Below are positions 1,122-13,871 of a stretch of DNA of 64,000 nt, piece after piece. The notes beneath the pieces are model-generated. The model did not search any database, was not told the DNA's origin, and saw only the letters and a program-made list of their open reading frames with translations. Made by a program: the position numbers and the translations under genes. This DNA comes from Myxococcota bacterium. GTDB lineage: Bacteria > Myxococcota_A > UBA9160 > UBA6930. Position 1 is the first letter of the stretch. Each line of letters opens with the position of its first letter. The DNA lies in NCBI GenBank assembly GCA_965223705.1, contig OZ245015.1, forward strand, positions 3,296,001 through 3,360,000, given 5' to 3'.

Positions 1122-2306
1122 CTAGGAGATCGCTCCACAGCTTCGCAGTCGCTCAATCGAGGCGTCGTCGTGCCCGAGCTCCCGGAGAACCTCATCCGTG
1201 TGCTCGCCCAGCGCAGGCGCCATGAAGCGTACTTCCGAGGGCGTGGCTTCGAAACGGGCGGTCGGTCGGGCCATGCGCATGGGGCCGCCGGCCGGGTGCT
1301 CGGCCTCAAACAGGCTGTTTCGATGGAGGATCTGCGGGTCGGTGTGGACCTCACTCAGTCGTCGAACCTTGGCGAAGGGAACTTCCTGAGCGTCGAGGCG
1401 GGCGCAAATCTCATCGGTCTTCCACTTCGCGAGTTCGCTGTCGAGGAGTTCGACCACTTCGTCGATTCGCGAAATCCGCGCGACCACCGTCGAGTACTTC
1501 GGATCCTCGGCGAGTTCGTCGCGGCCAATCGCCCGGCACATTCCACGCCACTCGTCGTCGGAAACGGTGAGGTACGTGATGCTTCCGTCGAGCGTTCGGG
1601 CGACCCGGTAGATGTCGCCCAGCGAGGGCATCGGGCGGACGCCCTCGCCGAGCCAAGTGTGGTTCCACATGCCGTCGGGCCACAAGAACGCGAGGCCGAC
1701 GTCCATCATCGTGACTTCGAGCGCTTGTCCCCCGGCGCCGCGTTCGCGCGCGTAGAGTGCAGCCGTGATCGCCTGCGCGGCATTCAACGCTGTCGCTTTG
1801 TCACAAACGATGTTCTTCACGAGTTCCGGCCGCGCATCGCCGCGCCTGCTCTGCACGTCGACGAAGCCGGTCAAACCCTGGATCACCGGATCGTACACAC
1901 GGCGGTCCGCATAGGGCCCGTCGGCGCCGAAACCGCTGATCGAAGCGTAGATGATGTCTTCCCGGGCGGCGCGGAGCACGTCGTAGCCGAGCCCCATTCG
2001 CTCCATCGCGCCCGGCCGAAAGTTCTGCACGACCACGTCCGCGGTCTTCACGAGATCGATGAGCAGCGAGCGACCGGATTCTTGGTGCGTGTCGATCACA
2101 ATCGACCGCTTGTTCCGGTTGAGCACCGCGAACATCGCGGCAGCCCCGTTTCGCACGGCGCCCATCTGGCGCGAGATGTCGCCACCCCTGGGCTGTTCGA
2201 CTTTGATGACGTCCGCGCCCTGGTCCGCGAGGACCTGAACGGCCATCGGGCCGGACACAACATTGGAGAGATCGATGATCCTGACGTCCGAGAGCGGACC
2301 GCTCAT
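1122..2306 (-). CDS. CaiB/BaiF family (class III) CoA transferase
   Basis: PLSDVRIIDLS..GP..LADQGADVIKVE, NRNKRS, VQNFRPG, YDPVIQ, APALGEHT motifs. Confidence 0.93.
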   Translation of the reverse strand: MSGPLSDVRIIDLSNVVSGPMAVQVLADQGADVIKVEQPRGGDISRQMGAVRNGAAAMFAVLNRNKRSIVIDTHQESGRSLLIDLVKTADVVVQNFRPGAMERMGLGYDVLRAAREDIIYASISGFGADGPYADRRVYDPVIQGLTGFVDVQSRRGDARPELVKNIVCDKATALNAAQAITAALYARERGAGGQALEVTMMDVGLAFLWPDGMWNHTWLGEGVRPMPSLGDIYRVARTLDGSITYLTVSDDEWRGMCRAIGRDELAEDPKYSTVVARISRIDEVVELLDSELAKWKTDEICARLDAQEVPFAKVRRLSEVHTDPQILHRNSLFEAEHPAGGPMRMARPTARFEATPSEVRFMAPALGEHTDEVLRELGHDDASIERLRSCGAIS

Positions 2307-2932
2307 TGCGCAACTCCTTCACGGTGCCGAAGGGCACCGTAGATCACGGTTTCGAGAAAGCGCTGGACCCGCGCCGGATCTCGTCGCGTGAACATCATTT
2401 GAGCGATCATGTTCCCGGATCCCACGACGAGATAGGCGGCCGCTTCGGGATCCACCGTCCGCATGAGTTCCCCGGATGCCTGGCCTTTGCGGATCACTTC
2501 GACGAAGGACCGGATGACGCGCGTCTGGAAGTCCTCGTAGAGGGGCCAGATCTCGTCCCGAACGGCGGTACTCCAATCCAGCCACACCTTGATGTGATCG
2601 GGGTGGCTCTCCGCGCGATGGGCGAACTCGCGGACGACAGCGAGCAAGGTGTCCGCGGCGCCTTCCTTGCGGGCGACGACATCCTGAATCATTTCGATGA
2701 GGAACCGGTCGACCTCGAGCAGGACCTCCCGGACGAGCTCCGCGCGCGTCGGGAAGTAGGAAAAAACCGTCGGCACAGCGACGCCGGCCTCAGCGGCGAT
2801 GGCCGCGTGGCGAGCCGAGCCGATCCCCTGCCGAGCGAACACGCGAATCGCGCAACCCAGCAGCTGGTCGCGCCTTTCCCCCCGGGGCAGACTCGGTGCC
2901 CTTTTTCGGACGAAAGCGGCGTCTTCGCTCAT
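2303..2932 (-). CDS. TetR-family regulator, HapR/SmcR/LuxR(V. harveyi)-like
   Basis: HTH VFARQGIG..HAAIA..GVAVPTVFSYFPTR; C-domain KVWLDWSTAVRDEIWPLY resembles HapR KVWFEWSASTRDEVWPLF (recalled); ATGA overlap with the CoA transferase. Confidence 0.9.
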   Translation of the reverse strand: MSEDAAFVRKRAPSLPRGERRDQLLGCAIRVFARQGIGSARHAAIAAEAGVAVPTVFSYFPTRAELVREVLLEVDRFLIEMIQDVVARKEGAADTLLAVVREFAHRAESHPDHIKVWLDWSTAVRDEIWPLYEDFQTRVIRSFVEVIRKGQASGELMRTVDPEAAAYLVVGSGNMIAQMMFTRRDPARVQRFLETVIYGALRHREGVAQ

Positions 2933-2935
2933 CGC

Positions 2936-2964
2936 TTGCAGAGTACCCGAGATCGAGTGATAAT
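2936..2964 (+). promoter_or_regulatory. sigma70-type promoter of the SDIMO operon
   Basis: TTGCAG-N17-GATAAT, 31 nt upstream of ATG 2996. Confidence 0.55.
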
Positions 2965-2974
2965 TTTATCATTC
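2955..2974. promoter_or_regulatory. palindromic operator, probable binding site of the divergent TetR
   Basis: GAGTGATAATTTTATCATTC (core TGATAA-TT-TTATCA); AT-rich patch in the 63-bp intergenic gap, overlapping the -10 box. Confidence 0.75.
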
Positions 2975-2995
2975 AACCGTGAAGGAAAGCAGCTG

Positions 2996-4027
2996 ATGTG
3001 CCCCCGTCCCGGACGCAAGCGCGGTAGCCAGCCGCACTTTCGCTACTTCGAACCCGCCAAGAAGCGCGCGTCGCAGTACGAAGAAGTCACCGTCCACACC
3101 CAGTGGGACCCGAAGAACTACGCCGCACAGGGATGGTTCAACCTCGATTCCCAAGGACGGGGAGCTTGGCACGACGATTCGACCGAGCTCCGGTCCGAGA
3201 ACTGGTGGGGCTACCGGGATCCAGGCCAGGAATGGTTCCGCCCGTTCGTCAATCGGCAGGCGTCGGTCGGCGATTCGATTACACAAGCGGTAGACGGCGC
3301 GAAGCGAAGCGGCGTGTTTCACGGCTTCACGCCCAAGTGGATCGAGTTTCTTCGCACTCATTACGCCGCCTACCGTTTCCCCGAGTACGGGCTCTTTCTC
3401 TGTCTGAGTCATGCGCAGCGTGAAGCGCTTTCCGACGTCGTCGCGAGTCCCTTGATGTTCCAGGGCCTCGAGAAGGATCGACACGCTCAGGACATCGCCC
3501 TCTACGGCATGGAGCTCGAAGACGCCATCCCGGGCTTCAGCGACGCGGACTGCAAAGCCGTTTGGATGGAGTCAACGGAGTGGCAACCGCTGCGCCGCTT
3601 CATCGAGGAACTCCTCGCCGCGCGAGACTGGGCAGAAATCAATCTCGCGATCAACCTGATTTACGAGCCCTTGGCCGCGGCACTGTTTGCGCGAGAGCTC
3701 GTGCTGCGTTTTGCGCCGCACCACGGCGACTCGGTCACGCCGGTGATCGTCGCCGGCGCCGAGGCCGACCGCGCGGTACGCGCAGAGAGCACCCGGGAGT
3801 TTGTTCGCTTCATCGTCGCGCAGGACGAAGGCAACCGAGACATCATCGACGGCTGGCTCGCCAACTGGAGCCCTCGGATGATCGATGCTTGCCGAGCCTT
3901 CGAGCCGTTCTTCACCGCTCCTGAGCACCCACCACAATCGTTCACAGAAGCCTTCGCCCGTGTGGTCGATGAGTGGCAAGCGAACCTCGGAGAACTCGGG
4001 CTGACCTGCCCGGCGGAGCGCTCATGA
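2996..4027 (+). CDS. soluble di-iron monooxygenase hydroxylase beta subunit
   Basis: Start moved to ATG 2996 (SD GAAGGA); KRASQYEEVTV, WWGYRDP, RHAQD, WQPLRRFIEE, DWAE..AINLIYEP motifs of AmoA/PrmC/MmoY-like subunits. Confidence 0.9.
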   Translation: MCPRPGRKRGSQPHFRYFEPAKKRASQYEEVTVHTQWDPKNYAAQGWFNLDSQGRGAWHDDSTELRSENWWGYRDPGQEWFRPFVNRQASVGDSITQAVDGAKRSGVFHGFTPKWIEFLRTHYAAYRFPEYGLFLCLSHAQREALSDVVASPLMFQGLEKDRHAQDIALYGMELEDAIPGFSDADCKAVWMESTEWQPLRRFIEELLAARDWAEINLAINLIYEPLAAALFARELVLRFAPHHGDSVTPVIVAGAEADRAVRAESTREFVRFIVAQDEGNRDIIDGWLANWSPRMIDACRAFEPFFTAPEHPPQSFTEAFARVVDEWQANLGELGLTCPAERS

Positions 4028-4323
4028 GCCCCACCGAGCTCCGCGAGAAGCACACGGTCAGCGCCAAGCTCATGGCGGGCGAAGAAGCGGAAGCCATCGC
4101 CGATGCCGTGCTCTCGAGCAACGCAGCCGCCGTCGTCGAGGACCACGGGGCGTACCTCGTGATCGAAGCCGAGCGCGAGCTCGTCTTCGATATGGAAGAC
4201 ATCGCGCTCGAACTCGGCCGCCCGTATGACGTGGCCGCGTTTCAGGTCGTCTTGTCGAGCTACACCGGGGAAGTCGACGTGCAAGATCGACAAGTTCTCA
4301 TCCGCGAAGCAATGAGCGGTTAG
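4024..4323 (+). CDS. SDIMO coupling/effector protein (MmoB/DmpM family)
   Basis: 99 aa from ATG 4024 (ATGA overlap); EDHGAYLVIEAE..ELGRPYD..VLSSYTG. Confidence 0.9.
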   Translation: MSPTELREKHTVSAKLMAGEEAEAIADAVLSSNAAAVVEDHGAYLVIEAERELVFDMEDIALELGRPYDVAAFQVVLSSYTGEVDVQDRQVLIREAMSG

Positions 4324-4342: not shown

Positions 4343-5869
4343 TTGTCCACATCATTCACGCGTGCCTACGACCGGGTGAAAGCCATTGACTGGGAGCCGA
4401 CCCACATCTCGCCATCCGACAAGATGACGGAGACGACGCGGTTCCATCTCGAAGGCCTGACGCCGGCGGATCCGTTCAAGACGTCTCTGCGCGAGTACTT
4501 CAACATGGAACGCGAAAAGGACAGCCGTCACTACGCGATCCTCGAAGCGGCGAGTCGCCTTCAATCGGGAAGCCCCCATCCGCGTTGGATGGAGAGCATG
4601 AAGTTCGGTCTCTCGAACCTGATCGCCATCGAGTATTCCGCCGGCCGGCAGATGGGCCGGATGGTTCGAAGCGTTGCGCCGATGGAGCTCCGGCAGGGCT
4701 ACATGATGCAAGTGCTCGACGAGATCCGGCACTCGCAACTCGAGATGAACACCTTGCGCCACCACATGAGAACGTGGAGCGATCCGGCGGGCTACGACAT
4801 CGCGCTTCACGCGTCGGGCAACAGCGTGGGAGCGGGCATTTTCCGCTCGCTGATCGAGGACTTCATGACCGCCGATCCGGTGGAGACCTCGCTCGGGTTC
4901 CAGATCTTTATCGAAACGGCGTACACAAACTTCTTTTTCGTCGGGATGTCGACGGCGGCGGCGGCGCACGGCGACAACGCGCTCGCCTCTACCATGTTGA
5001 CCATCCAATCCGACGAGTCGCGTCACATGGCGAACGGCTGGACCACCCTCGCGACGCTCCTGCAGGACGACCGGAACCTGCCGCTCATTCAACAGGTGCT
5101 CGACAAGTGGGCCTGGCGAAGCCATGTGAGTTTCGGCGTCGGCAACGCGCTGTTCGGCGACTATTTTGTGAGAAATCGAACCGAATCGTCGAAAGAGATG
5201 GCCTTGCGCTGGGTCTTCGACGAGTTCTACGGCGCGTTCTACCAGAAGCTCGAGCGCTACGGAATCAAGCCGCCGCCGCACCTCGACCGCATGATTTCGG
5301 ATCTCGACACCATCTCCCACGCAGCGGCGATCTACCTGTTCGGTGCTTGGCCCGCGTTCTACCACCGCTACGACCCGCTGACGCCCGAAGAGATGGACTG
5401 GTTTGAGGAGAAGTACCCGGGCTGGTACTCGCACTTCGGCGGATTCTGGGAAGCCTATAACCAGATGACCGATCCCGACAACGCGACTCTCATCTTGAAA
5501 GAGCTGGGAGGTCTGCCGAACTTCTGCCAGGTCTGCCAACTGCCCACCGTCTTTCCGCGACCCGATGCGAACACCGGCCGCTCGGTGGAGCACGACGGGA
5601 AGACCTACGTCGCCTGCTCCCAAGGCTGCGAAGAGATTTTTCTGAACGATCCACTGCACTACTCGGGATTCAGGAGCTTCTACGATTTGTACAACGGGGA
5701 GGATCTGGCCGATGCGATACGCGACCTCGGCTACCTTCGCTCTGATGGAGAGACGTTGATCGCGCAACCGGTGCTCGAGCCCAAGCGCATGTGGACGCTC
5801 GAAGACATTCGCCGCTGCCAGTATCAAGTCGAAGCCCCGCCGCTTCCCCCGCCCGCTGTCGCGTCCTAG
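4343..5869 (+). CDS. SDIMO hydroxylase alpha subunit (AmoC/EtnC-like, divergent)
   Basis: Di-iron ligands EY, DEIRH, ETAYTN, DESRH; C-terminal CQVCQLP..CSQGC YHS-like region; TTG start with GGGAG SD. Confidence 0.95.
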   Translation: MSTSFTRAYDRVKAIDWEPTHISPSDKMTETTRFHLEGLTPADPFKTSLREYFNMEREKDSRHYAILEAASRLQSGSPHPRWMESMKFGLSNLIAIEYSAGRQMGRMVRSVAPMELRQGYMMQVLDEIRHSQLEMNTLRHHMRTWSDPAGYDIALHASGNSVGAGIFRSLIEDFMTADPVETSLGFQIFIETAYTNFFFVGMSTAAAAHGDNALASTMLTIQSDESRHMANGWTTLATLLQDDRNLPLIQQVLDKWAWRSHVSFGVGNALFGDYFVRNRTESSKEMALRWVFDEFYGAFYQKLERYGIKPPPHLDRMISDLDTISHAAAIYLFGAWPAFYHRYDPLTPEEMDWFEEKYPGWYSHFGGFWEAYNQMTDPDNATLILKELGGLPNFCQVCQLPTVFPRPDANTGRSVEHDGKTYVACSQGCEEIFLNDPLHYSGFRSFYDLYNGEDLADAIRDLGYLRSDGETLIAQPVLEPKRMWTLEDIRRCQYQVEAPPLPPPAVAS

Positions 5870-5877
5870 AGCTCGCG

Positions 5878-6903
5878 TTGGCACACGAGATTACGCTTCT
5901 ACCGTTCGGAATCACCTTCGCGTGCGAAGAGGACGAATCGATTCTCGACGCCTCGATTCGCCAAGGCATACAACTTCGCTACGGATGCAAGCACGGAGGC
6001 TGCGGGAGCTGTAAAGCCCAGATCGCCGATGGAGAGGTGGACGTCGAAGAAGCTTCGACGTTCGCGTTGATGGACTACGAGCGCGCCCAGGGACTCGCGC
6101 TGTTGTGCTCGGCCTATCCACTGTCGGACATCTCGATCGCGCTCGCGGATGACTACGAAGAAGCGGATTTGCATGGCGGAATCCCGGTCGGGGACTTCCG
6201 AGCGCAGGTCCGCGACGTGACGGAGTTGACCCACGACATCACGCACTTAGCGCTCACGGTGACGGACCCTTCTCCCATGGAGTTCCGAGCGGGCCAATAC
6301 GTCGAGATCAACGTGCCGGGAAGCGATGAATGGCGCGCATTTTCCATGGCCAACGCACCGAGCGACGCCGGACAGCTCGACCTCGTCCTCAAGATCCTCC
6401 CGGACGGGCTGTTCTCCCAACACGTCGCATCTGCGATCCGCTCGGGCGATCAGCTGGACCTTCGCGGTCCCTTCGGCCAGTTTGTTCTCACGGAGGGCAC
6501 GGCGCCGATCGTCATGGTCGCCGGTGGCTCCGGCATGGCTCCAATCTGGGCGATGCTCGAACAACTGGTCGCCGAAGGCTCGAAGCGCCCGGTAACGTTC
6601 TTCTACGGCGCGCGGTCCGTGCGCGATCTCTTCTGGACGCGCAAAATCGAAGCGCTGGGAGCCGAACTGCCAGAGTTCACCTACGTCCCGGCAATCTCGG
6701 ATCCGCGTCCGGAAGACGAATGGTCGGGTGAAGTCGGCCTCGTCACCGAGGTTGTCGACCGGCGCTGCGAGAGCTTGCGAGGGAGCGAGGCCTATCTGTG
6801 CGGCCCGCCGGCCATGATCGACGCGGCGATCGACGTACTCCGCGGAAAGGGCCTCTTCTCGACGCGAATTCGCTTCGACAAGTTCGTCAGCTCCGAGAGC
6901 TGA
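5878..6903 (+). CDS. SDIMO NADH reductase (2Fe-2S/FAD/NAD)
   Basis: CKHGGCGSCK..C ferredoxin domain, RAFSMAN, GGSGMAP, YLCGPP, DKF; TTG start inferred. Confidence 0.93.
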   Translation: MAHEITLLPFGITFACEEDESILDASIRQGIQLRYGCKHGGCGSCKAQIADGEVDVEEASTFALMDYERAQGLALLCSAYPLSDISIALADDYEEADLHGGIPVGDFRAQVRDVTELTHDITHLALTVTDPSPMEFRAGQYVEINVPGSDEWRAFSMANAPSDAGQLDLVLKILPDGLFSQHVASAIRSGDQLDLRGPFGQFVLTEGTAPIVMVAGGSGMAPIWAMLEQLVAEGSKRPVTFFYGARSVRDLFWTRKIEALGAELPEFTYVPAISDPRPEDEWSGEVGLVTEVVDRRCESLRGSEAYLCGPPAMIDAAIDVLRGKGLFSTRIRFDKFVSSES

Positions 6904-6923: not shown

Positions 6924-7328
6924 ATGGACGATCACGCACGCGACGAGTTAGCTCGGGCGACTCGAGAATTCACGGACGCCTTCAACCGAAACGACCTGGA
7001 TTCGGTGTTGTCGCACTTTGCGCAGCACAAAGCGGTTTACGAGCAATTCGATGGTCGGATCGCGGACGGCCTCGAGGCGATTCGCGACGCGCTCGTGCCC
7101 CAGTTCCGGGGTGATTTCGGCGAGATGAAGTTTCTCGAGGAAGATGCGTTTGTCGATCCCGAACAGCGCAAGACACTGATTCGGTGGCGCTGCACCCTCG
7201 ACACTCGACAGGGCCCCGCGAGCTGGCGTGGGCTCGATATCCTGCACTTCGATGCCGACGGAAAAATCCGCGCGAAGCTGACCTACGCCAAGGCGAAGAA
7301 GCTCGCCTTGGAGAACGACCCCGGCTAG
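6924..7328 (+). CDS. SnoaL/NTF2-like protein
   Basis: FTDAFNRNDLD..F...GLEAIR..WRGLDILHFDADGKI pattern. Confidence 0.8.
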   Translation: MDDHARDELARATREFTDAFNRNDLDSVLSHFAQHKAVYEQFDGRIADGLEAIRDALVPQFRGDFGEMKFLEEDAFVDPEQRKTLIRWRCTLDTRQGPASWRGLDILHFDADGKIRAKLTYAKAKKLALENDPG

Positions 7329-8566
7329 AAGAAGACGAACGACCTCACCACGACGTTCTTGCGGCACCGCGCGTCTCCGGGTGCCGTCGGATCGACGCAT
7401 GCGGAGTGGAAGGACCAGCGCGACACCGAGCCGTCGCGAACCGAGTCGTAGCACTTCAGCATGGAGACCTCGGTGGAAGTCTGCTGCGGAATCCAATACC
7501 ACTCGTGGTCGGGGCGGTGCGTGAAGCGCGTCGTTTCTCCAACGCGGTCGTCGTAGATGCGATAGTTCGTAATGTAGGGCTGGTCCGCGAACGAAGGCCA
7601 CGCACACAGCACAAACGGGTACTGCTCCACCGTCTCCATGGGCTTGGCCAAGTTGATCGACATGAACCGGCGCGACATCTTCGCGTCGGCTTCCGCTTCG
7701 GTGTAGTGCTGCTCGCGTCCGAAGTTTCGCAGGTTCTTCGTCAGGAGCTCGCGACAGCGGACGCGCCCGCTGTTGTCGTTGAGATCGTTGTGAACGATGT
7801 TGGCGTAGAAGTTGTTGACGCCCGGATTCTTATTGTCCTGATCCTCGGTGCGGTCGCCCTCGTAATCCTTGTCGAAGACGTCGTGGTTGTAGACGAGCGC
7901 GTCGGTCGCCCCTGGGAAGAACTCGAGGAGCAGCTTCTCCATCTCGGGGTAGAAAACGCGCTCGACTTCCGCGGCGTCGTAAAAGTTCTCGCACTTGGAC
8001 TCGCAGTGGGCCAAAGAGACACCGAGGCGATCCATGCATTCCGGGCTGCTGGGCGAGAGACCGGGATAGTACGTCGCGATCCTTCGCGCGTCGCGCAGGA
8101 CTTGCGGGAAATAGAGACAGCGCCGGTCGTTGTCGCGTTCGTCCTTGCGGAGCGCGTGTGCGTCCGCTTCACGGGCCGGATCCCTCCACAAGGCGTTCGA
8201 CGAAACCACGGAATAGGAAGGTGCCTCGAAGATCGAGTAGCGAAGCGGCAGCACGACGCCGCCCTCCGGCGCGGTCAAGCCACTCTCGCGGATGTAGTCG
8301 ACGCACTCGGCCCATTTGCGGAAGCCGAGGCCCCATTTCGTCTCGATCGGCCCCGGCGGAGCGCTCTCGATCATGTCGGTGACGGCCTGACCCTCCCCAC
8401 TGGCGATCTGGTCGAGCGCCGCGCGGGTCGCCGCTTCCGTGCCTGCGTCGCCGCCTCGGTCGAGGGACATGTACGAGAGCCCACCGTTCGCCGCGATGGG
8501 CGGTGGCTGCCCTTCCGTGAGCTCGAGGGTCGGTACGAATGCCGAGGCTTCTTCGGCGTGATCCAT
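7325..8566 (-). CDS. CmcJ/NvfI (AsaB-like) family oxidoreductase with N-terminal extension
   Basis: FYDAAEVERVFYPE, VHND, HEWYWIPQQ..EVSMLKCYDS, HSACVDP, RKNVVVR; start at ATG 8566 (GGAG SD). Confidence 0.75.
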   Translation of the reverse strand: MDHAEEASAFVPTLELTEGQPPPIAANGGLSYMSLDRGGDAGTEAATRAALDQIASGEGQAVTDMIESAPPGPIETKWGLGFRKWAECVDYIRESGLTAPEGGVVLPLRYSIFEAPSYSVVSSNALWRDPAREADAHALRKDERDNDRRCLYFPQVLRDARRIATYYPGLSPSSPECMDRLGVSLAHCESKCENFYDAAEVERVFYPEMEKLLLEFFPGATDALVYNHDVFDKDYEGDRTEDQDNKNPGVNNFYANIVHNDLNDNSGRVRCRELLTKNLRNFGREQHYTEAEADAKMSRRFMSINLAKPMETVEQYPFVLCAWPSFADQPYITNYRIYDDRVGETTRFTHRPDHEWYWIPQQTSTEVSMLKCYDSVRDGSVSRWSFHSACVDPTAPGDARCRKNVVVRSFVFF

Positions 8567-8655
8567 GAGCGGGTCTCCGATCGGGTGCCCTACATCGTGA
8601 CACAATCGGCGCGGATCGGCCTATCGGGGGCGGGATTGCAGCGCGAGCCCTCGGG

Positions 8656-9354
8656 CTAGTTCGCGGCACCCGTGCGAAACGCCTGTGCGGAGAGCCCCTG
8701 GGCAGTTCCTCCCGCGTAGTGTGCATAACGCGGAATGAAGTACGCGAGATCGTGACAGGTCTCGGCGACGGCGGGCCGTTCCGCCACGACCGCGAGCCAG
8801 CGGCGCAAGCGGGCACAGTCCCCGGGAATCCGTAGGCCACGGTAGTGCTCGAAAACAGGGACGCGCTCGAAGAACGGAAAGAAGGCCGCGTCGACCAAGC
8901 TCATCTGCGGGCCCAGCCAGTACGGTCCGTCGCCCTGAAGCGCCTCGAGGCGCCCCTCGAGAAATCGCATCCCGTCCTCGACCTCACCGCGCAGCTCCGC
9001 CTGCTCCGCGGGCTCTTGCGAGAAGAGCATGCGATAGAGCACCGGCAAGAACACGTTGTCCAAATGTCGGATCTCGCCCCGCATGACGGCCAGTCCACGC
9101 TCATCGCCCGGGCGCAGCGCCTCGCCGGGAAAGCTGCCGTCCAGGTATTCGTTCACGATCGCGGATTCCCACAAGACGAAGTCGCCGTGGCGGATGACAG
9201 GAACGCGGCCCGTCGGCGTGAGCTCGATCAGCCAGTCCGGCTTGTCGTCGAGATCGATCTCGACTTGCTCGTGGGCGATCCCCTTCTCTCCCAGGACAAT
9301 GCGTGTTCGTTGCGCGTAGGGACAGACTTCTGCGGTGTAGAGGGTGAGGCTCAT
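8656..9354 (-). CDS. glutathione S-transferase (omega-like, CPYA active site)
   Basis: CPYAQR, GRVPVI, WESAIVNEYLD, SLVDAAFFPFFER. Confidence 0.9.
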   Translation of the reverse strand: MSLTLYTAEVCPYAQRTRIVLGEKGIAHEQVEIDLDDKPDWLIELTPTGRVPVIRHGDFVLWESAIVNEYLDGSFPGEALRPGDERGLAVMRGEIRHLDNVFLPVLYRMLFSQEPAEQAELRGEVEDGMRFLEGRLEALQGDGPYWLGPQMSLVDAAFFPFFERVPVFEHYRGLRIPGDCARLRRWLAVVAERPAVAETCHDLAYFIPRYAHYAGGTAQGLSAQAFRTGAAN

Positions 9355-9443
9355 CGCGAGGCAGTTTAGCCGAGTTGGATTCCCAGAGACGGTCGGGAGC
9401 CGATTCCCTACAATGGCGTGCGACCCATCAAACGGAGCTCATC

Positions 9444-9914
9444 GTGAACATACCCACGACGCCCGCGCAGTTCGCGGATACGTACGACACCGACAAGCTC
9501 GACTGGATTCGCGTTACGGGGACACCCCGTTTCACGTATCCCATCGACTACTGGGTCGCGGTGCTCGGCGTTGACGAGGCAGCGGGACGGATCGACTTCC
9601 TCTCGCGCTGGGAGCCCGACTCCTATTGTCACTACCACCGCCACTTGGGAGAGACATCGCTTCTCGTCCTCGAGGGCGAACATCACGTCGTCGAGACGAC
9701 CGAGACCGAGACCATTCACAAGACGCGGCGACCGGGATTCTTCACCACGAACCCCGGCGGTGACTTGCATATGGAGTACGGCGGCCCCGACGGCACCCTG
9801 GTCTATTTCAGCTGCCTCGCCGTAGATGGCAAGGTGTTCGACGTCGTCGGGGACAACGACCGGATTCTCAAGACCGCGACCGTCGAAGACTTTACGTCCG
9901 GAAAAATCGCCTAA
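9444..9914 (+). CDS. cupin-domain protein (ChrR-like cupin)
   Basis: GTG start with GGAG SD; YCHYHRH..VLEGEH..HMEYGG. Confidence 0.75.
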   Translation: MNIPTTPAQFADTYDTDKLDWIRVTGTPRFTYPIDYWVAVLGVDEAAGRIDFLSRWEPDSYCHYHRHLGETSLLVLEGEHHVVETTETETIHKTRRPGFFTTNPGGDLHMEYGGPDGTLVYFSCLAVDGKVFDVVGDNDRILKTATVEDFTSGKIA

Positions 9915-9918
9915 CCGA

Positions 9919-10548
9919 CTACCGAAAGACCGTTCGAAGCGTCAGGTTGATCCGCGGGCGGGCGATGCGCTTTCGCTTCGGCAACTGATGGGCCCACCGC
10001 GTCTGTGATCCCCGCCCCATGAGCAGAAGAGAACCGTGGCGGAGAGCGCACTTCACGTGGGGAAGCTCGCGCCGGTAACGGTGCCTGAGCACGAAATCGC
10101 GGGTCTCTCCAAAACTCACCGAGCCGATGATCGGGTCTTCCCCGAACTCCTTCTCGTCGTCACTGTGCCAGCCGACGCTGTCGTTCCCGTCGCGATACAG
10201 CGTGACCAACACGCCGTTGAACGAAACCCCCGTGAGCTTCCGCACGCGCTCCCGAATGGCATTGAGGGGGTCGGTCATGGCAAGGGGCTCGACCTGCAGA
10301 CCCGAGTAGCAAAGCGTCAGGCCCTCCTCCGCATACCAGGCTTGAAGGCGAGGAATCGGCACAAGTTTTCCGTGAATCCGGATCCGATCGCTGCGCCAGG
10401 GAGTCTCGGCGCGGAGCGACTCAAAAAATCGATCGGACTCCGCCGCGGAGAACGCGCGTGGGTAGTAATCCAACTCGGCGTCAGCCAGACCGATCGACTG
10501 TTTCTGTGCGGAAGCAGCCCCCACCGCGAACAGCGATTGCTGAGTCAA
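9919..10548 (-). CDS. AlkB-family Fe(II)/2OG dioxygenase (ALKBH2/3-like DNA repair)
   Basis: PRLQAWY, YRDGNDSVGWHSDDE, H, RINLTLR. Confidence 0.92.
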   Translation of the reverse strand: MTQQSLFAVGAASAQKQSIGLADAELDYYPRAFSAAESDRFFESLRAETPWRSDRIRIHGKLVPIPRLQAWYAEEGLTLCYSGLQVEPLAMTDPLNAIRERVRKLTGVSFNGVLVTLYRDGNDSVGWHSDDEKEFGEDPIIGSVSFGETRDFVLRHRYRRELPHVKCALRHGSLLLMGRGSQTRWAHQLPKRKRIARPRINLTLRTVFR

Positions 10549-10560
10549 CGCGCCGTGCCG

Positions 10561-12150
10561 TCAGCCCAGCTGGAACCCGGCGTAGCCCGAGGCGGCGACT
10601 TCGTCACACTTCTCTCGGTAGACCGCCATACCTCCGATGTACGGCATGAAGATACGCGGCTTGCCAGGGACATTCGCGCCGACGTACCAAGACGCCGCCT
10701 CGGGAAAGAGCGTCGCGTCGGCGACTTGGTTGACGTGATCCACCCAGGATTGCTCGGCGTCGGGGAGTGCCTCGATGACATCGTGCCGGTGATCTCTCAG
10801 GTAGACCAAACAGTCCGCGATCCATTCGACGTGCTGCTCGATCGACAGAATCATGTTCGACATGACCGAAGGGCTCCCCGGTCCCGTGATCATGAACAGA
10901 TTCGGGAATCCCTCCACGGCGAGCCCGAGATAGGTGCGCGGGCCCTCGCTCCATTTTTCCTTCAGGGGGCGCCCGCCCTTGCCGCGGAGGTCGACGTTCT
11001 CCACGGCACCCGTCATCGCGTCGAAACCCGTCGCCAGCACGATCGCATCGTAAGGATGCTCCGCCTCGGACGTCTGCACGCCATCCTCGGTGATGCGCTG
11101 GATCGGCGTCTTGCGAAGGTCGACGAGCTTTACGTGGGATTGGTTGAATGTCGCGTAGTAGTCGGTGTCGAGGCAGATTCTTTTCGTGCCGATCGGGAAA
11201 CTCGTCGGACACAGCAGTTCCGCCGTCTCGGGATCGTGCACGACCTCACGAATCTTTCCCCGCACGAAATCCGCAGCCGTCGCGTTCGCAGCCTTGTCGA
11301 TGAGCAGATCGTTGAACTGCTGCATCACCGCCACGATTTCGCCCCGTTCCCAAGCCGCCTGGTATTTGCGCTCGCGTTCGGCGGCGTCGACCTCGAACGC
11401 ACCCGTATCGAGCGGGGCATCGGGCACGCCGAACGAGGAATGGCGCGAACGGTGACGATGTTCGGGGTAGCGCGCTTTCCAAGCCTCGCGCTCGTCTTCC
11501 GCAAGTTCGCGGTTATAGGCCGGGAGACTGAAAGCCGGCGTGCGTTGGTAGACGGTGAGTTCGGACGCTTGCTTCGCGATCAGGGGAATCGATTGAATCG
11601 CCGAGGAACCGGTGCCGACGACACCGACGCGCATCCCGCTGAAATCGACGCCTTCCTCGGGCCAGCGAGCGGTGTGGTAGACCTCTCCTTCGAAGCTCTC
11701 GAGGCCCTCGATATCGACTTCTTTCGGCACGGAGAGGCAGCCCGTCGCGAACACGCAATACGCCGCTTCGAACGCCTCGCCCGCTTCGGTCCGAATCCGC
11801 CAGCACGTGTTCTCCTCGTCGAAGTGAGCCGATGAGACCCGCGTATCGAATTGGATATCGCGCCGAAGGTCGTAACGGTCGGCGACGTGATTCGCATAGC
11901 GGAGGATTTCCGCCTGGGGCGCGTATTTCTCACTCCAGTTCCATTCGCGCTGGAGCTCTTCGTCGAAGGAGAAGCAGTAGTCCATACTTTGGACGTCGCA
12001 GCGCGCGCCCGGATAGCGGTTCCAGTACCAAGTACCGCCCACGCCGGAGCCCGCCTCGAGCACTCGGACGGAAAAGCCCAGCCCCCGGAACTTGTAGAGC
12101 GAGTACATCCCCGCAAAACCCGCTCCGACCACAATGACGTCGTACTGCAT
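10561..12150 (-). CDS. type I Baeyer-Villiger monooxygenase
   Basis: GAGFAG, GGTWYWNRYPG, fingerprint FEGEVYHTARWP, GTGSS, ATGFDA. Confidence 0.95.
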   Translation of the reverse strand: MQYDVIVVGAGFAGMYSLYKFRGLGFSVRVLEAGSGVGGTWYWNRYPGARCDVQSMDYCFSFDEELQREWNWSEKYAPQAEILRYANHVADRYDLRRDIQFDTRVSSAHFDEENTCWRIRTEAGEAFEAAYCVFATGCLSVPKEVDIEGLESFEGEVYHTARWPEEGVDFSGMRVGVVGTGSSAIQSIPLIAKQASELTVYQRTPAFSLPAYNRELAEDEREAWKARYPEHRHRSRHSSFGVPDAPLDTGAFEVDAAERERKYQAAWERGEIVAVMQQFNDLLIDKAANATAADFVRGKIREVVHDPETAELLCPTSFPIGTKRICLDTDYYATFNQSHVKLVDLRKTPIQRITEDGVQTSEAEHPYDAIVLATGFDAMTGAVENVDLRGKGGRPLKEKWSEGPRTYLGLAVEGFPNLFMITGPGSPSVMSNMILSIEQHVEWIADCLVYLRDHRHDVIEALPDAEQSWVDHVNQVADATLFPEAASWYVGANVPGKPRIFMPYIGGMAVYREKCDEVAASGYAGFQLG

Positions 12151-12258
12151 TCCCTGTCTCCTCCGGCCCGAAAGGCCCCGCTAGTTTACCCGGCCTCTCC
12201 CGACCCCTCGAGTCTGGTAGAATGCTCGGCGCCAATCACCCAAGCCCCGAGGTCCAAG

Positions 12259-12705
12259 ATGACTACCGTCCCTTTCAGCCTCTATGACCAGGAAATCAGC
12301 TGGCAACCCTTCGCCGGGATCGAAAATCTCGAGCTCTCTCTGTGCGACGTCGATCCCAGGCGCGGTATCGTGGACCTGGTGGTGCGCTTTGCACCGAACA
12401 AGACGGTGACGATGCACAATCATCTCGCCCCGACCAATATGTTCATCATTCAAGGGGAGCTTCGGATGTACGAGCCCGACGGCTCGGTACGCGAAGCCCG
12501 TAGTGCTGGACACTACTTCCCGGGTACCACGAACGATGTCCACAGCGAGGGGGGCGGCCCCGATGGCGCCGTCGTCTTCTACAGCGTTCGCTCCGACGGA
12601 AACGCCGCACTGTTCGAGGTGATGAACGACGATCAGACCGTCGCCGCGACCGTGACGATGGACGACGTCATGGCTCTTTGGGAAGCCCAGCAGGCCGCTG
12701 CCTAG
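12259..12705 (+). CDS. cupin-domain protein (ChrR-like cupin)
   Basis: ATG 12259; HNH..IIQGE..HSEGGG; similar to the cupins at 9444 and 29753. Confidence 0.75.
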   Translation: MTTVPFSLYDQEISWQPFAGIENLELSLCDVDPRRGIVDLVVRFAPNKTVTMHNHLAPTNMFIIQGELRMYEPDGSVREARSAGHYFPGTTNDVHSEGGGPDGAVVFYSVRSDGNAALFEVMNDDQTVAATVTMDDVMALWEAQQAAA

Positions 12706-12746
12706 GGTTCTTTAGGGTCCCCTGCGGCGGGCTACACTCCGGCGCG

Positions 12747-13871
12747 ATGAAATTCCACGTAATCGTCTACTGCACGATGGGCACCCGCGCCGAAATTGAA
12801 CTCGGCATGGCGGGTAAGCGCCCCGAACTCTACCAGCGCATGCTCCGCAATTTGCGCGAATACATCGAGATCTGTGATGAAGGGGGCTTCGAAGGCTTCG
12901 GGCACCCCGAACATCACCTGCAGATCGAGGGCATGGAGGCGACGGGAAGCCCAGGCATCCTCAGCATGTTCATCGGCCAGCACGCGAAGCGGATGAAGGT
13001 CGACATCCTCGGTTACGTCATGAGCACCCACAATCCGCTGCGGGTCGCCGAGGACGTCGCGATGATGGACCACATGTTGGAAGGCCGGCTCAACGTCGCC
13101 TTTGTTCGCGGCTACCAAGCGCGTTGGGTGCAGAACTACGCCACGCGCGCCGAGTTTCACCCGGTCGGCCCGTGGAACAAGCAGAGCGAAGACGACCGCC
13201 GCAATCGGCGGGCTTTCGAGGAAGCGGTCGCAATCGTTAAACGCGCCTGGACCGAGGACACCTTCTCTCACCGCGGTGAGTTCTGGACGATTCCGCCGGA
13301 GGGAGCGAAGAACCCGCATCCCATGGATGCGTACACCCGCTATGGAGCCGGGGTCGACGATGCGATGCAGATCCACGAAGTCGGCATCGCGCCCCGGCCG
13401 TTCCAGTCACCGCACCCGCCGCTCTATGCGGGCTTTACACACAGTACGGAGTCGGTCCGTTTCTGGGGACGCGAAGGCGGAAAGCCGATCGTGATTCTGC
13501 TGAACGAAGAACTCTGCGCGAAGCTACGCGACGCGCTCCGCGAAGAAGCGGAGAAGGCGGATCGCTGTGTGACGCCCGGAACGGAGTTGGCGCTCGGCGG
13601 CCAGCTCGTGCTGGCGCGCAGCGACGCCGAAGCGCGTGCGATTCAGAACGACACGGACTGGTTCTGGAGCCAGTGGGGCGTGCCGTTCGGCTTGGGCACG
13701 CCGGAGTACATCATCGGAGACGCCGACACGATTTCCCGGCAAATCGAGCGCGCCGAGAAGATCGGGACCGACGAGATGTTTTTCCTGTTGGGCGATGGGC
13801 TCCTCGACCACGACATTGTGAAGCGTACGCTTGAAACGTTCTCGGAGAGGGTCCTTCCGCGTTTCTCGTAG
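12747..13871 (+). CDS. luciferase-like (LLM class) flavin-dependent oxidoreductase
   Basis: PEHH, HNPLRVAEDVAMMDHMLEGRL, PRPFQSPHPP. Confidence 0.88.
   Translation: MKFHVIVYCTMGTRAEIELGMAGKRPELYQRMLRNLREYIEICDEGGFEGFGHPEHHLQIEGMEATGSPGILSMFIGQHAKRMKVDILGYVMSTHNPLRVAEDVAMMDHMLEGRLNVAFVRGYQARWVQNYATRAEFHPVGPWNKQSEDDRRNRRAFEEAVAIVKRAWTEDTFSHRGEFWTIPPEGAKNPHPMDAYTRYGAGVDDAMQIHEVGIAPRPFQSPHPPLYAGFTHSTESVRFWGREGGKPIVILLNEELCAKLRDALREEAEKADRCVTPGTELALGGQLVLARSDAEARAIQNDTDWFWSQWGVPFGLGTPEYIIGDADTISRQIERAEKIGTDEMFFLLGDGLLDHDIVKRTLETFSERVLPRFS

Follow-up and report, generated by a model that had tools for sequence, protein, structure and literature searches.

A TetR-family relative of the Vibrio LuxR/HapR regulators and a predicted LuxR-type operator beside a group 7 soluble di-iron monooxygenase operon in a Myxococcota bacterium

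The quorum-sensing master regulators LuxR and HapR have been described as a 'Vibrio-specific protein family' in a 2026 paper which gives them no native ligand (PMC12977469). The DNA motif of LuxR is TTATTGATAAATTTATCAATAA (PMC8034623) and the consensus of SmcR agrees with it (PMC2859563). Group 7 among soluble di-iron monooxygenases (SDIMOs) includes the enzyme of Solimonas soli, which is reported to act oxidatively on C2-C4 alkenes as well as on hexene, octene and isoprene (PMC11825192, section 3.7); this 2025 review lists the inducer and the physiological substrate of the group as unknown and names no regulator. Here we analyse a stretch of 64,000 nucleotides from a Myxococcota genome (contig OZ245015.1, positions 3,296,001 to 3,360,000; hereafter the window), in which the gene of a TetR-family protein, P0001, faces away from a group 7 SDIMO operon and a LuxR-type operator is predicted between the two. 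Our literature searches returned no description of the subfamily to which P0001 belongs, of its operator or of a group 7 regulator, although these regulators may be mentioned in the SmcR consensus paper, in the primary publication on Zmo or in a review of the TetR family.

Judged from its sequence, P0001 is kin of the Vibrio quorum-sensing masters and not one of them. The LuxR/HapR/OpaR model NF040929 is the best of the 15 NCBIfam models that match it (94.6 bits, against 46.1 for the next TetR model), but this score is far under the family cut-off of 350. The top 18 sequence matches in the PDB are LuxR/HapR/SmcR/OpaR proteins; the Foldseek rows down to rank 43, among the matches listed, and the top 20 rows of VIA-align (Z 21-23, rmsd 1.7-2.9) are all LuxR/HapR/SmcR. 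Homology to HapR/SmcR/LuxR, as proposed in the first-pass annotation of the window, is thus confirmed: among characterised proteins these are the nearest relatives, whether judged by sequence, by fold or by tree. With the Vibrio LuxR/HapR/SmcR/OpaR/LitR proteins (PDB 7AMN, 3KZ9, 2PBX, 8ZF2 and 8ZF3) P0001 shares the fold, the helix-turn-helix (HTH), the operator core and a KVWxxWS..R..xWP block. It differs from them in a diverged pocket and ligand domain, in the absence of the RNA polymerase patch and of Qrr, in having one to three sites instead of hundreds, and in its position divergent from an oxygenase instead of from hpt. One search returned 52 homologues of P0001 at E 1e-15 and another 296 cluster representatives at 1e-10, while a search of genome contigs with P0001 as the single query found no relative. 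Several homologues bear the automatic name 'hemagglutinin/protease regulator', so the likeness to HapR was already known to the databases.

Two trees were built, one of 96 rows (22 of 86 dereplicated locus proteins omitted, 22 of 149 other database proteins retained, 15 outgroup rows) and one of 59 rows (37 further rows omitted, nine outgroup TetR rows). In both, the wider family and the Vibrio LuxR proteins form a single clade against the outgroup, itself a small sample of TetRs, with support of 100/98 for nine outgroup rows and 98 for 15; P0001 accordingly groups with LuxR/HapR and apart from the other TetRs tested. The Vibrionaceae LuxR clade (100/100) excludes P0001 and has hpt-linked proteins as its sister (98/94). 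P0001 falls in a separate clade of nine rows (96/89) together with members linked to SDIMO, copper monooxygenase and MpaB genes. It had also been suggested that P0001 could show the ancestral role of the family. The trees, whose backbone is open, do not establish this, nor that the Vibrio proteins are nested within catabolic members; a tree with all 31 members from outside the marine group as one clade is not rejected (approximately unbiased test, p 0.43). The subfamily to which P0001 belongs is wide and as yet without a name, and it has its ancestry, fold and operator in common with Vibrio LuxR/HapR.

The palindrome GAGTGATAATTTTATCATTC (2955-2974) is self-complementary at 16 of 20 positions. 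It agrees with the V. alginolyticus LuxR motif at 13 of the 14 core positions, the single difference from a LuxR core that had been noted before, and at 16 of 22 positions over the whole site (PMC8034623), and by sequence match it is a 22-bp site of the LuxR type, TTATTGATA-N4-TATCAATAA. The pattern matches twice in the window, being one site read on both strands, against a mean of 0.04 in shuffled sequences, and the 14-bp core occurs only once in the 4.56-Mb genome at two mismatches or fewer. An expectation-maximisation motif search of 63 dereplicated upstream regions of homologues, with the window excluded and no LuxR prior, yielded tTATTGAtAaaatTgTCAATAa; 20 of its 22 bases are those of the LuxR motif, which supports a LuxR-type operator. 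TGA-N8-TCA is present in 33 of these 63 regions, other spacings in two to nine regions each. The LuxR consensus scores above shuffled sequences (p at most 0.02) in 34/64 family regions as against 0/8 regions of other TetRs; the same comparison gives 0/7 for AT-rich Vibrionaceae regions and 0/3 for hpt-linked ones.

The palindrome might instead be bound by another factor, for example Fur, with tetR as a bystander, given that its core contains GATAAT and precedes the genes of an iron enzyme. A Fur box has the arrangement 7-1-7. The spacing in the family motif is N8, with N9 in only 2/63 regions, and the motif tracks the TetR family and a residue of its N-terminal arm, which makes a bystander role for tetR very improbable. 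A Fur-type box was itself rejected on spacing, and the genome holds no 7-1-7 box at up to two mismatches.

The arm residue in question corresponds to Arg11 of LuxR, which reads T2 of the operator (PMC8034623). T2 is found in 138 of 142 family half-sites where the protein has Arg at this position and in 10 of 32 where it does not; the non-Arg cases outside the main clade, L087 (Ala) and L102 (Pro), have T2 in 0/2 half-sites each. This protein-DNA covariation agrees with the prediction from the LuxR-DNA structure and is the best indirect evidence that the family reads the operator. Tandem operators with a period of 15 bp occur in 10 of 12 loci of the clade of the window, with one more at 30 (L024, L025-L032, L045, L104); this clade carries Ser or Lys in place of Arg11, and none of the 71 Arg11 loci has the 15-bp spacing. 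The window differs from these relatives in having one strong site only.

Compared with a Vibrionaceae reference protein that agrees with SmcR at each of the 20 pocket positions given in PMC2859563 and PMC12977469, P0001 is identical at 29/52 positions of the HTH and at 25/134 of the ligand domain. Of the LuxR DNA contacts (PMC8034623, PMC3705450) it retains T52 and F54, while R9, R11, S49, A51 and N55 are replaced; Ala12 and Ser14 stand in the columns of Arg9 and Arg11, although Arg11 is retained in 69 of 84 other non-Vibrio family members. The earlier claim of the same DNA specificity therefore holds for the TGA-N8-TCA core and not for the outer flanks, which differ, in keeping with 2/7 identical contact residues. 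Only three of the 20 pocket residues (W114, S118 and A163) are common to P0001 and SmcR, and the polar SmcR residues N136, Q137 and H167 are V, I and V in P0001. Transfer of a ligand from P0001 to the Vibrio proteins, which had been envisaged, is accordingly uncertain.

As far as gene order and alpha subunit identity can tell, the operon divergent from tetR encodes a group 7 SDIMO (Zmo type). Its order of beta, coupling protein, alpha and reductase is shared with Solimonas soli ZmoABCD (section 3.7 of PMC11825192). The alpha subunit belongs to a clade at 58-88% identity, followed by a gap down to 45%, so that SDIMOs outside the clade are at most 45% identical; its identity with the alpha subunit of Zhongshania aliphaticivorans BC9_2A, a strain that Table S3 of PMC11825192 assigns to group 7, is 66%, and the group 7 placement is made by identity through BC9_2A, not ZmoC itself. 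The tetR gene and the ATG of the beta subunit (2996) are divergent and separated by 63 bp (2933-2995), as open reading frame and gap coordinates agree in confirming. In this gap TTGCAG (2936) and GATAAT (2959), 17 bp apart, match the sigma-70 consensus at 8/12 positions and overlap the palindrome. A promoter scan with a threshold of 9/12 called no site and no consensus promoter; the idea that the palindrome covers the -10 box of the SDIMO promoter is therefore no more than plausible. The operator probably covers the -10 elements of both divergent promoters. Features of the locus are collected in Table 1.

Table 1. Coordinates of the features around the predicted operator (positions in the window)
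Feature	Position	Strand	Basis
Family III (CaiB-type) CoA transferase, accessory, not conserved	1122..2306	minus	PF02515; overlaps tetR stop
tetR (P0001), 209 aa, TetR-family regulator, LuxR/HapR lineage in the wider sense	2303..2932	minus	NF040929, PDB sequence and fold matches, trees
Probable SDIMO promoter TTGCAG-17 bp-GATAAT	2936..2964	plus	Inferred, read from sequence
22-bp palindromic operator (predicted), core 2958-2971	2954..2975	none	Genome-unique core; position weight matrix trained without the window
Group 7 SDIMO hydroxylase beta subunit	2996..4027	plus	PF02332; NF045802 below cut-off
SDIMO coupling protein	4024..4323	plus	PF02406
Group 7 SDIMO hydroxylase alpha subunit	4343..5869	plus	Identity to Zhongshania aliphaticivorans BC9_2A alpha; both DExRH di-iron motifs intact
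SDIMO reductase (2Fe-2S, FAD and NAD domains), probable TTG start	5878..6903	plus	Domain matches
SnoaL-like protein, probably final operon gene	6924..7328	plus	PF12680

The combination of tetR, palindrome and SDIMO recurs in other genomes, as the first-pass annotation had anticipated. A search with the alpha alignment was followed for the best 80 of at least 595 genome loci, 14 of them group 7 and 66 others. A family TetR is present in 9/14 group 7 loci and in 0/66 loci of other SDIMOs; six of the nine are directly divergent, one is divergent at 1.5 kb, one lies downstream and one at 5-8 kb. The five group 7 loci without a TetR comprise one that is cut at beta, three from Zhongshania, with a TetR elsewhere in the genome, and one from Binataceae, with none. 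The three Zhongshania genomes without an adjacent tetR still have the operator site. For site scoring (13 group 7 genome loci plus L024, L107 being unscored, and 65 other SDIMOs, L152 being unscored), 12 of the 14 group 7 operons were preceded by a site of at least 15 bits, as against 2 of the 65 others. Both non-group-7 genomes with a site encode a family TetR, as do two without a site. Four further divergent tetR/SDIMO pairs came from a metagenome scan made from the TetR side, the operator also occurs in cultured Zhongshania and Spongiibacter strains, and both the closest SDIMO (89%) and the closest TetR (72%) are in a Myxococcota record. In a search of 60 relatives, no SDIMO alpha gene came up at E 1e-100. 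Near the group 7 SDIMO of Zhongshania and Spongiibacter (L110:3099-8584, L113:1469-8610), several copies of the operator stand in addition before genes for a SnoaL-like protein and a TonB-dependent receptor and before unknown genes, which suggests that an uptake module is part of the regulon. Three of the SDIMO loci (L107, L109 and L152) are in metagenome-assembled genomes labelled Klebsiella pneumoniae, labels that may be wrong, and L109 is near-syntenic with L108 from a gammaproteobacterial one.

In the mechanism that we propose, a dimer of P0001 would bind the one palindrome that separates tetR from the SDIMO operon and would block both divergent promoters, probably including its own. A small hydrophobic molecule would then fill the C-terminal pocket and cause release of the DNA; the effector would most likely be either what the SDIMO oxidises, an alkene or a similar hydrocarbon, or the first product of that reaction. 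Binding and repression by P0001 are very likely, because symmetric sites mark repressed promoters (PMC3705450) and because of the TetR precedent (PMC2628434), whereas release by a ligand is suggested by TetR precedent, by the target genes and by the apolar pocket. The model as a whole, in which a hydrophobic compound, substrate or product, releases a local repressor of oxygenases, we consider probable. P0001 would work like a classical local TetR repressor, with its operator in the shared promoter region of the divergent target. The likeness to TetR/tetA includes the divergent pair, one palindromic operator, the short shared promoter region and the probable autorepression; P0001 differs from the classical repressors in its LuxR-type 22-bp operator and its LuxR lineage.

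The CoA transferase gene downstream of tetR, which is probably co-transcribed with it and not with the SDIMO because it overlaps the tetR stop, bears on the nature of the effector. The first-pass annotation had offered an acyl-CoA made by this enzyme as a candidate, and one from downstream beta-oxidation is a further option. Besides the gene overlap, this idea draws on family members that adjoin acyl-CoA dehydrogenase or wax ester synthase genes and on the first non-LuxR Foldseek matches, which are FadR proteins. However, the CoA transferase adjoins tetR in only one of 15 SDIMO-linked loci, that of the window, FadRs are level with many unrelated TetRs in VIA-align (Z 18-19), and SmcR has a small pocket of 468 cubic angstroms (PMC2859563). 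An acyl-CoA effector is therefore unlikely, and its supply by the CoA transferase is not supported.

The members of the subfamily probably act locally, mostly on the oxygenase genes with which they are associated. In a metagenomic sample (the best 80 of 204 loci, 63 of them with 500 bp upstream), an oxygenase-type gene lies directly upstream in 59 of 63 members, or 18 of 22 after dereplication. The partners of the 63 are a ferritin-like di-iron protein (31), luciferase-like monooxygenase (16), MpaB/Lcp-like protein (7), SDIMO (4) and P450 (1), with four unassigned. The family was found in 3/400 Gammaproteobacteria and, when searched with the NF040929 model, in 6/151 genomes of the phylum of the window. 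The commonest divergent partner (L037:6705-7922 and 36 other loci) is a conserved ferritin-like protein of 405 aa that contains two DEARH motifs and weakly resembles AurF/R2lox; its predicted fold is of low confidence (pLDDT 59.7) with generic ferritin-like matches only. In the sister clade of P0001 (L025:112-1221 and six relatives) the facing gene is of the MpaB/rubber-oxygenase-like kind (0.96 by Atlas features, no Pfam match). At L260:2944-6626 (G205:C269) the gene divergent from a family TetR opens a copper membrane monooxygenase operon that is complete (C, A, B), and only a weak 10-bit site lies between the two. All 30 loci of the Enterobacterales order are divergent from hpt; such hpt-linked LuxR orthologues (L236-L244; about 100-153 bits) are present in 48 of 301 genomes searched of that order (Agarivorans-type), and Qrr had no match in three hpt-linked genomes tested.

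This range of targets, which spans di-iron, flavin, heme-type and copper oxygenases, could also mean that operator and local repression are as we propose and that the effector is a general oxygenase signal, such as oxygen or redox state, or metal or cofactor supply; Cys27, present in 52/93 aligned sequences, would fit such a signal. Yet a genome may hold two to four paralogues beside different enzymes and with diverged pockets, as expected for different organic ligands, Cys27 lies in helix 1 of the DNA-binding domain, and the ligand domain is without a conserved Cys. A general signal thus has little probability compared with a substrate or product of hydrophobic nature. Covalent sensing through a pocket Cys was rejected, since no conserved Cys is found there.

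A genome scan with the family matrix, trained without the window, gave four sites of at least 20 bits, in agreement with the small, local regulon proposed earlier; the site of the window ranks second. The best site precedes a P450 operon that holds a paralogue of P0001, the fourth precedes a second SDIMO 8.3 kb to the left of the window, and the third (G000:C1:2184979) precedes genes without a Pfam match and is within the chance level of permuted matrices. Three of the four best sites thus precede oxygenase operons. Because permuted matrices give 0-3 sites of at least 20 bits, the position of the sites and not their count is informative. The paralogue is a LuxR-like TetR, 40% identical and with the arm Arg kept, and its gene is part of the series P450, tetR, unknown, P450, flavin monooxygenase (L258:1511-6948, G000:C1:3514511-3519948); the best site of the genome stands before the first P450. 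The second SDIMO (L257:4798-8784, G000:C1:3283798-3287784) has the group 6 order of alpha, beta, coupling protein (inferred from position) and reductase, and a 20-bit operator-like site lies 89 bp before alpha, as likewise in its gammaproteobacterial relatives L128 and L138. P0001 may also control this group 6-type enzyme. The genome contains four SDIMO alpha genes, the two others (G000:C1:1844072 and C1:2770833) being away from the listed top sites.

Control in the Vibrio LuxR manner, by the level or proteolysis of the regulator itself and not by a ligand, possibly with an activator role as well, would accord with the Vibrio proteins, which have no known native ligand and in which ligand binding drives proteolysis (PMC12977469). 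Several features speak against it. The site is symmetric, which is the repressed type (PMC3705450), and lies over the probable -10; the RNA polymerase contact residues S76, L139 and N142 (PMC8191795) are not conserved in P0001; and Qrr (RF00378) has no match in the 95%-complete genome, as compared with four in a Vibrionaceae control genome. Together with the four sites, the loss of the contact residues also argues against a large regulon. Ligand-free control is accordingly still less probable than the two other effector hypotheses.

A number of observations weigh against the model of a ligand-released oxygenase repressor. Training of the matrix included some SDIMO-linked loci, so the count of 12/14 is partly circular, though the Zhongshania promoters were outside the training set. 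L115 has no good site (its genome is without a family TetR) and L116 has only 8.9 bits beside a divergent tetR; L144, the closest relative of the second SDIMO (80%), is without a site. The four sites of the genome barely exceed the permuted-matrix controls (0-3). The rows of the covariation are kin, and most non-Arg rows are one clade with tandem sites, which confounds the change in the flank. As to the partners, 19 of 31 gammaproteobacterial loci have none assigned, 6 of 14 loci in relatives of the genome follow a wax ester synthase and 2 of 14 face an acyl-CoA dehydrogenase, and the commonest partner was called an oxygenase from di-iron motifs and weak matches only.

Beyond the reductase, the SnoaL-like gene of the operon had no tblastn match at the corresponding place in other group 7 loci, and its product, having no clear PDB relative, was rejected as a known epoxide hydrolase. 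Genes for a CmcJ/NvfI-type oxidoreductase, a glutathione S-transferase, a cupin and a 2-oxoglutarate-Fe(II) oxygenase are clustered at 7325-13871, together with Baeyer-Villiger-type and luciferase-like monooxygenases; none of the top operator sites falls there.

What is new here is a candidate regulator and operator for a group 7 SDIMO, and a LuxR operator that is shared far beyond Vibrio, in a family offering natural variants of the contact between arm and minor groove. It is conceivable, though we hold it only tentatively, that Vibrio LuxR/HapR is a derived offshoot of widespread hydrophobic-ligand sensors that repress oxygenases through the same operator, an operator which was kept and loosened into a global regulon while Qrr control was gained. 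Because the pocket has diverged, a ligand found for P0001 may give only a class for the Vibrio proteins. A relative with one operator beside an enzyme of the alkene-oxidising type makes the questions of the LuxR ligand and of the group 7 inducer testable together. If this derivation of the Vibrio proteins is true, the inducer of the group 7 operon would reveal the natural substrate of the enzyme and also what class of compound was first bound, and perhaps is still bound, in the LuxR/HapR pocket.
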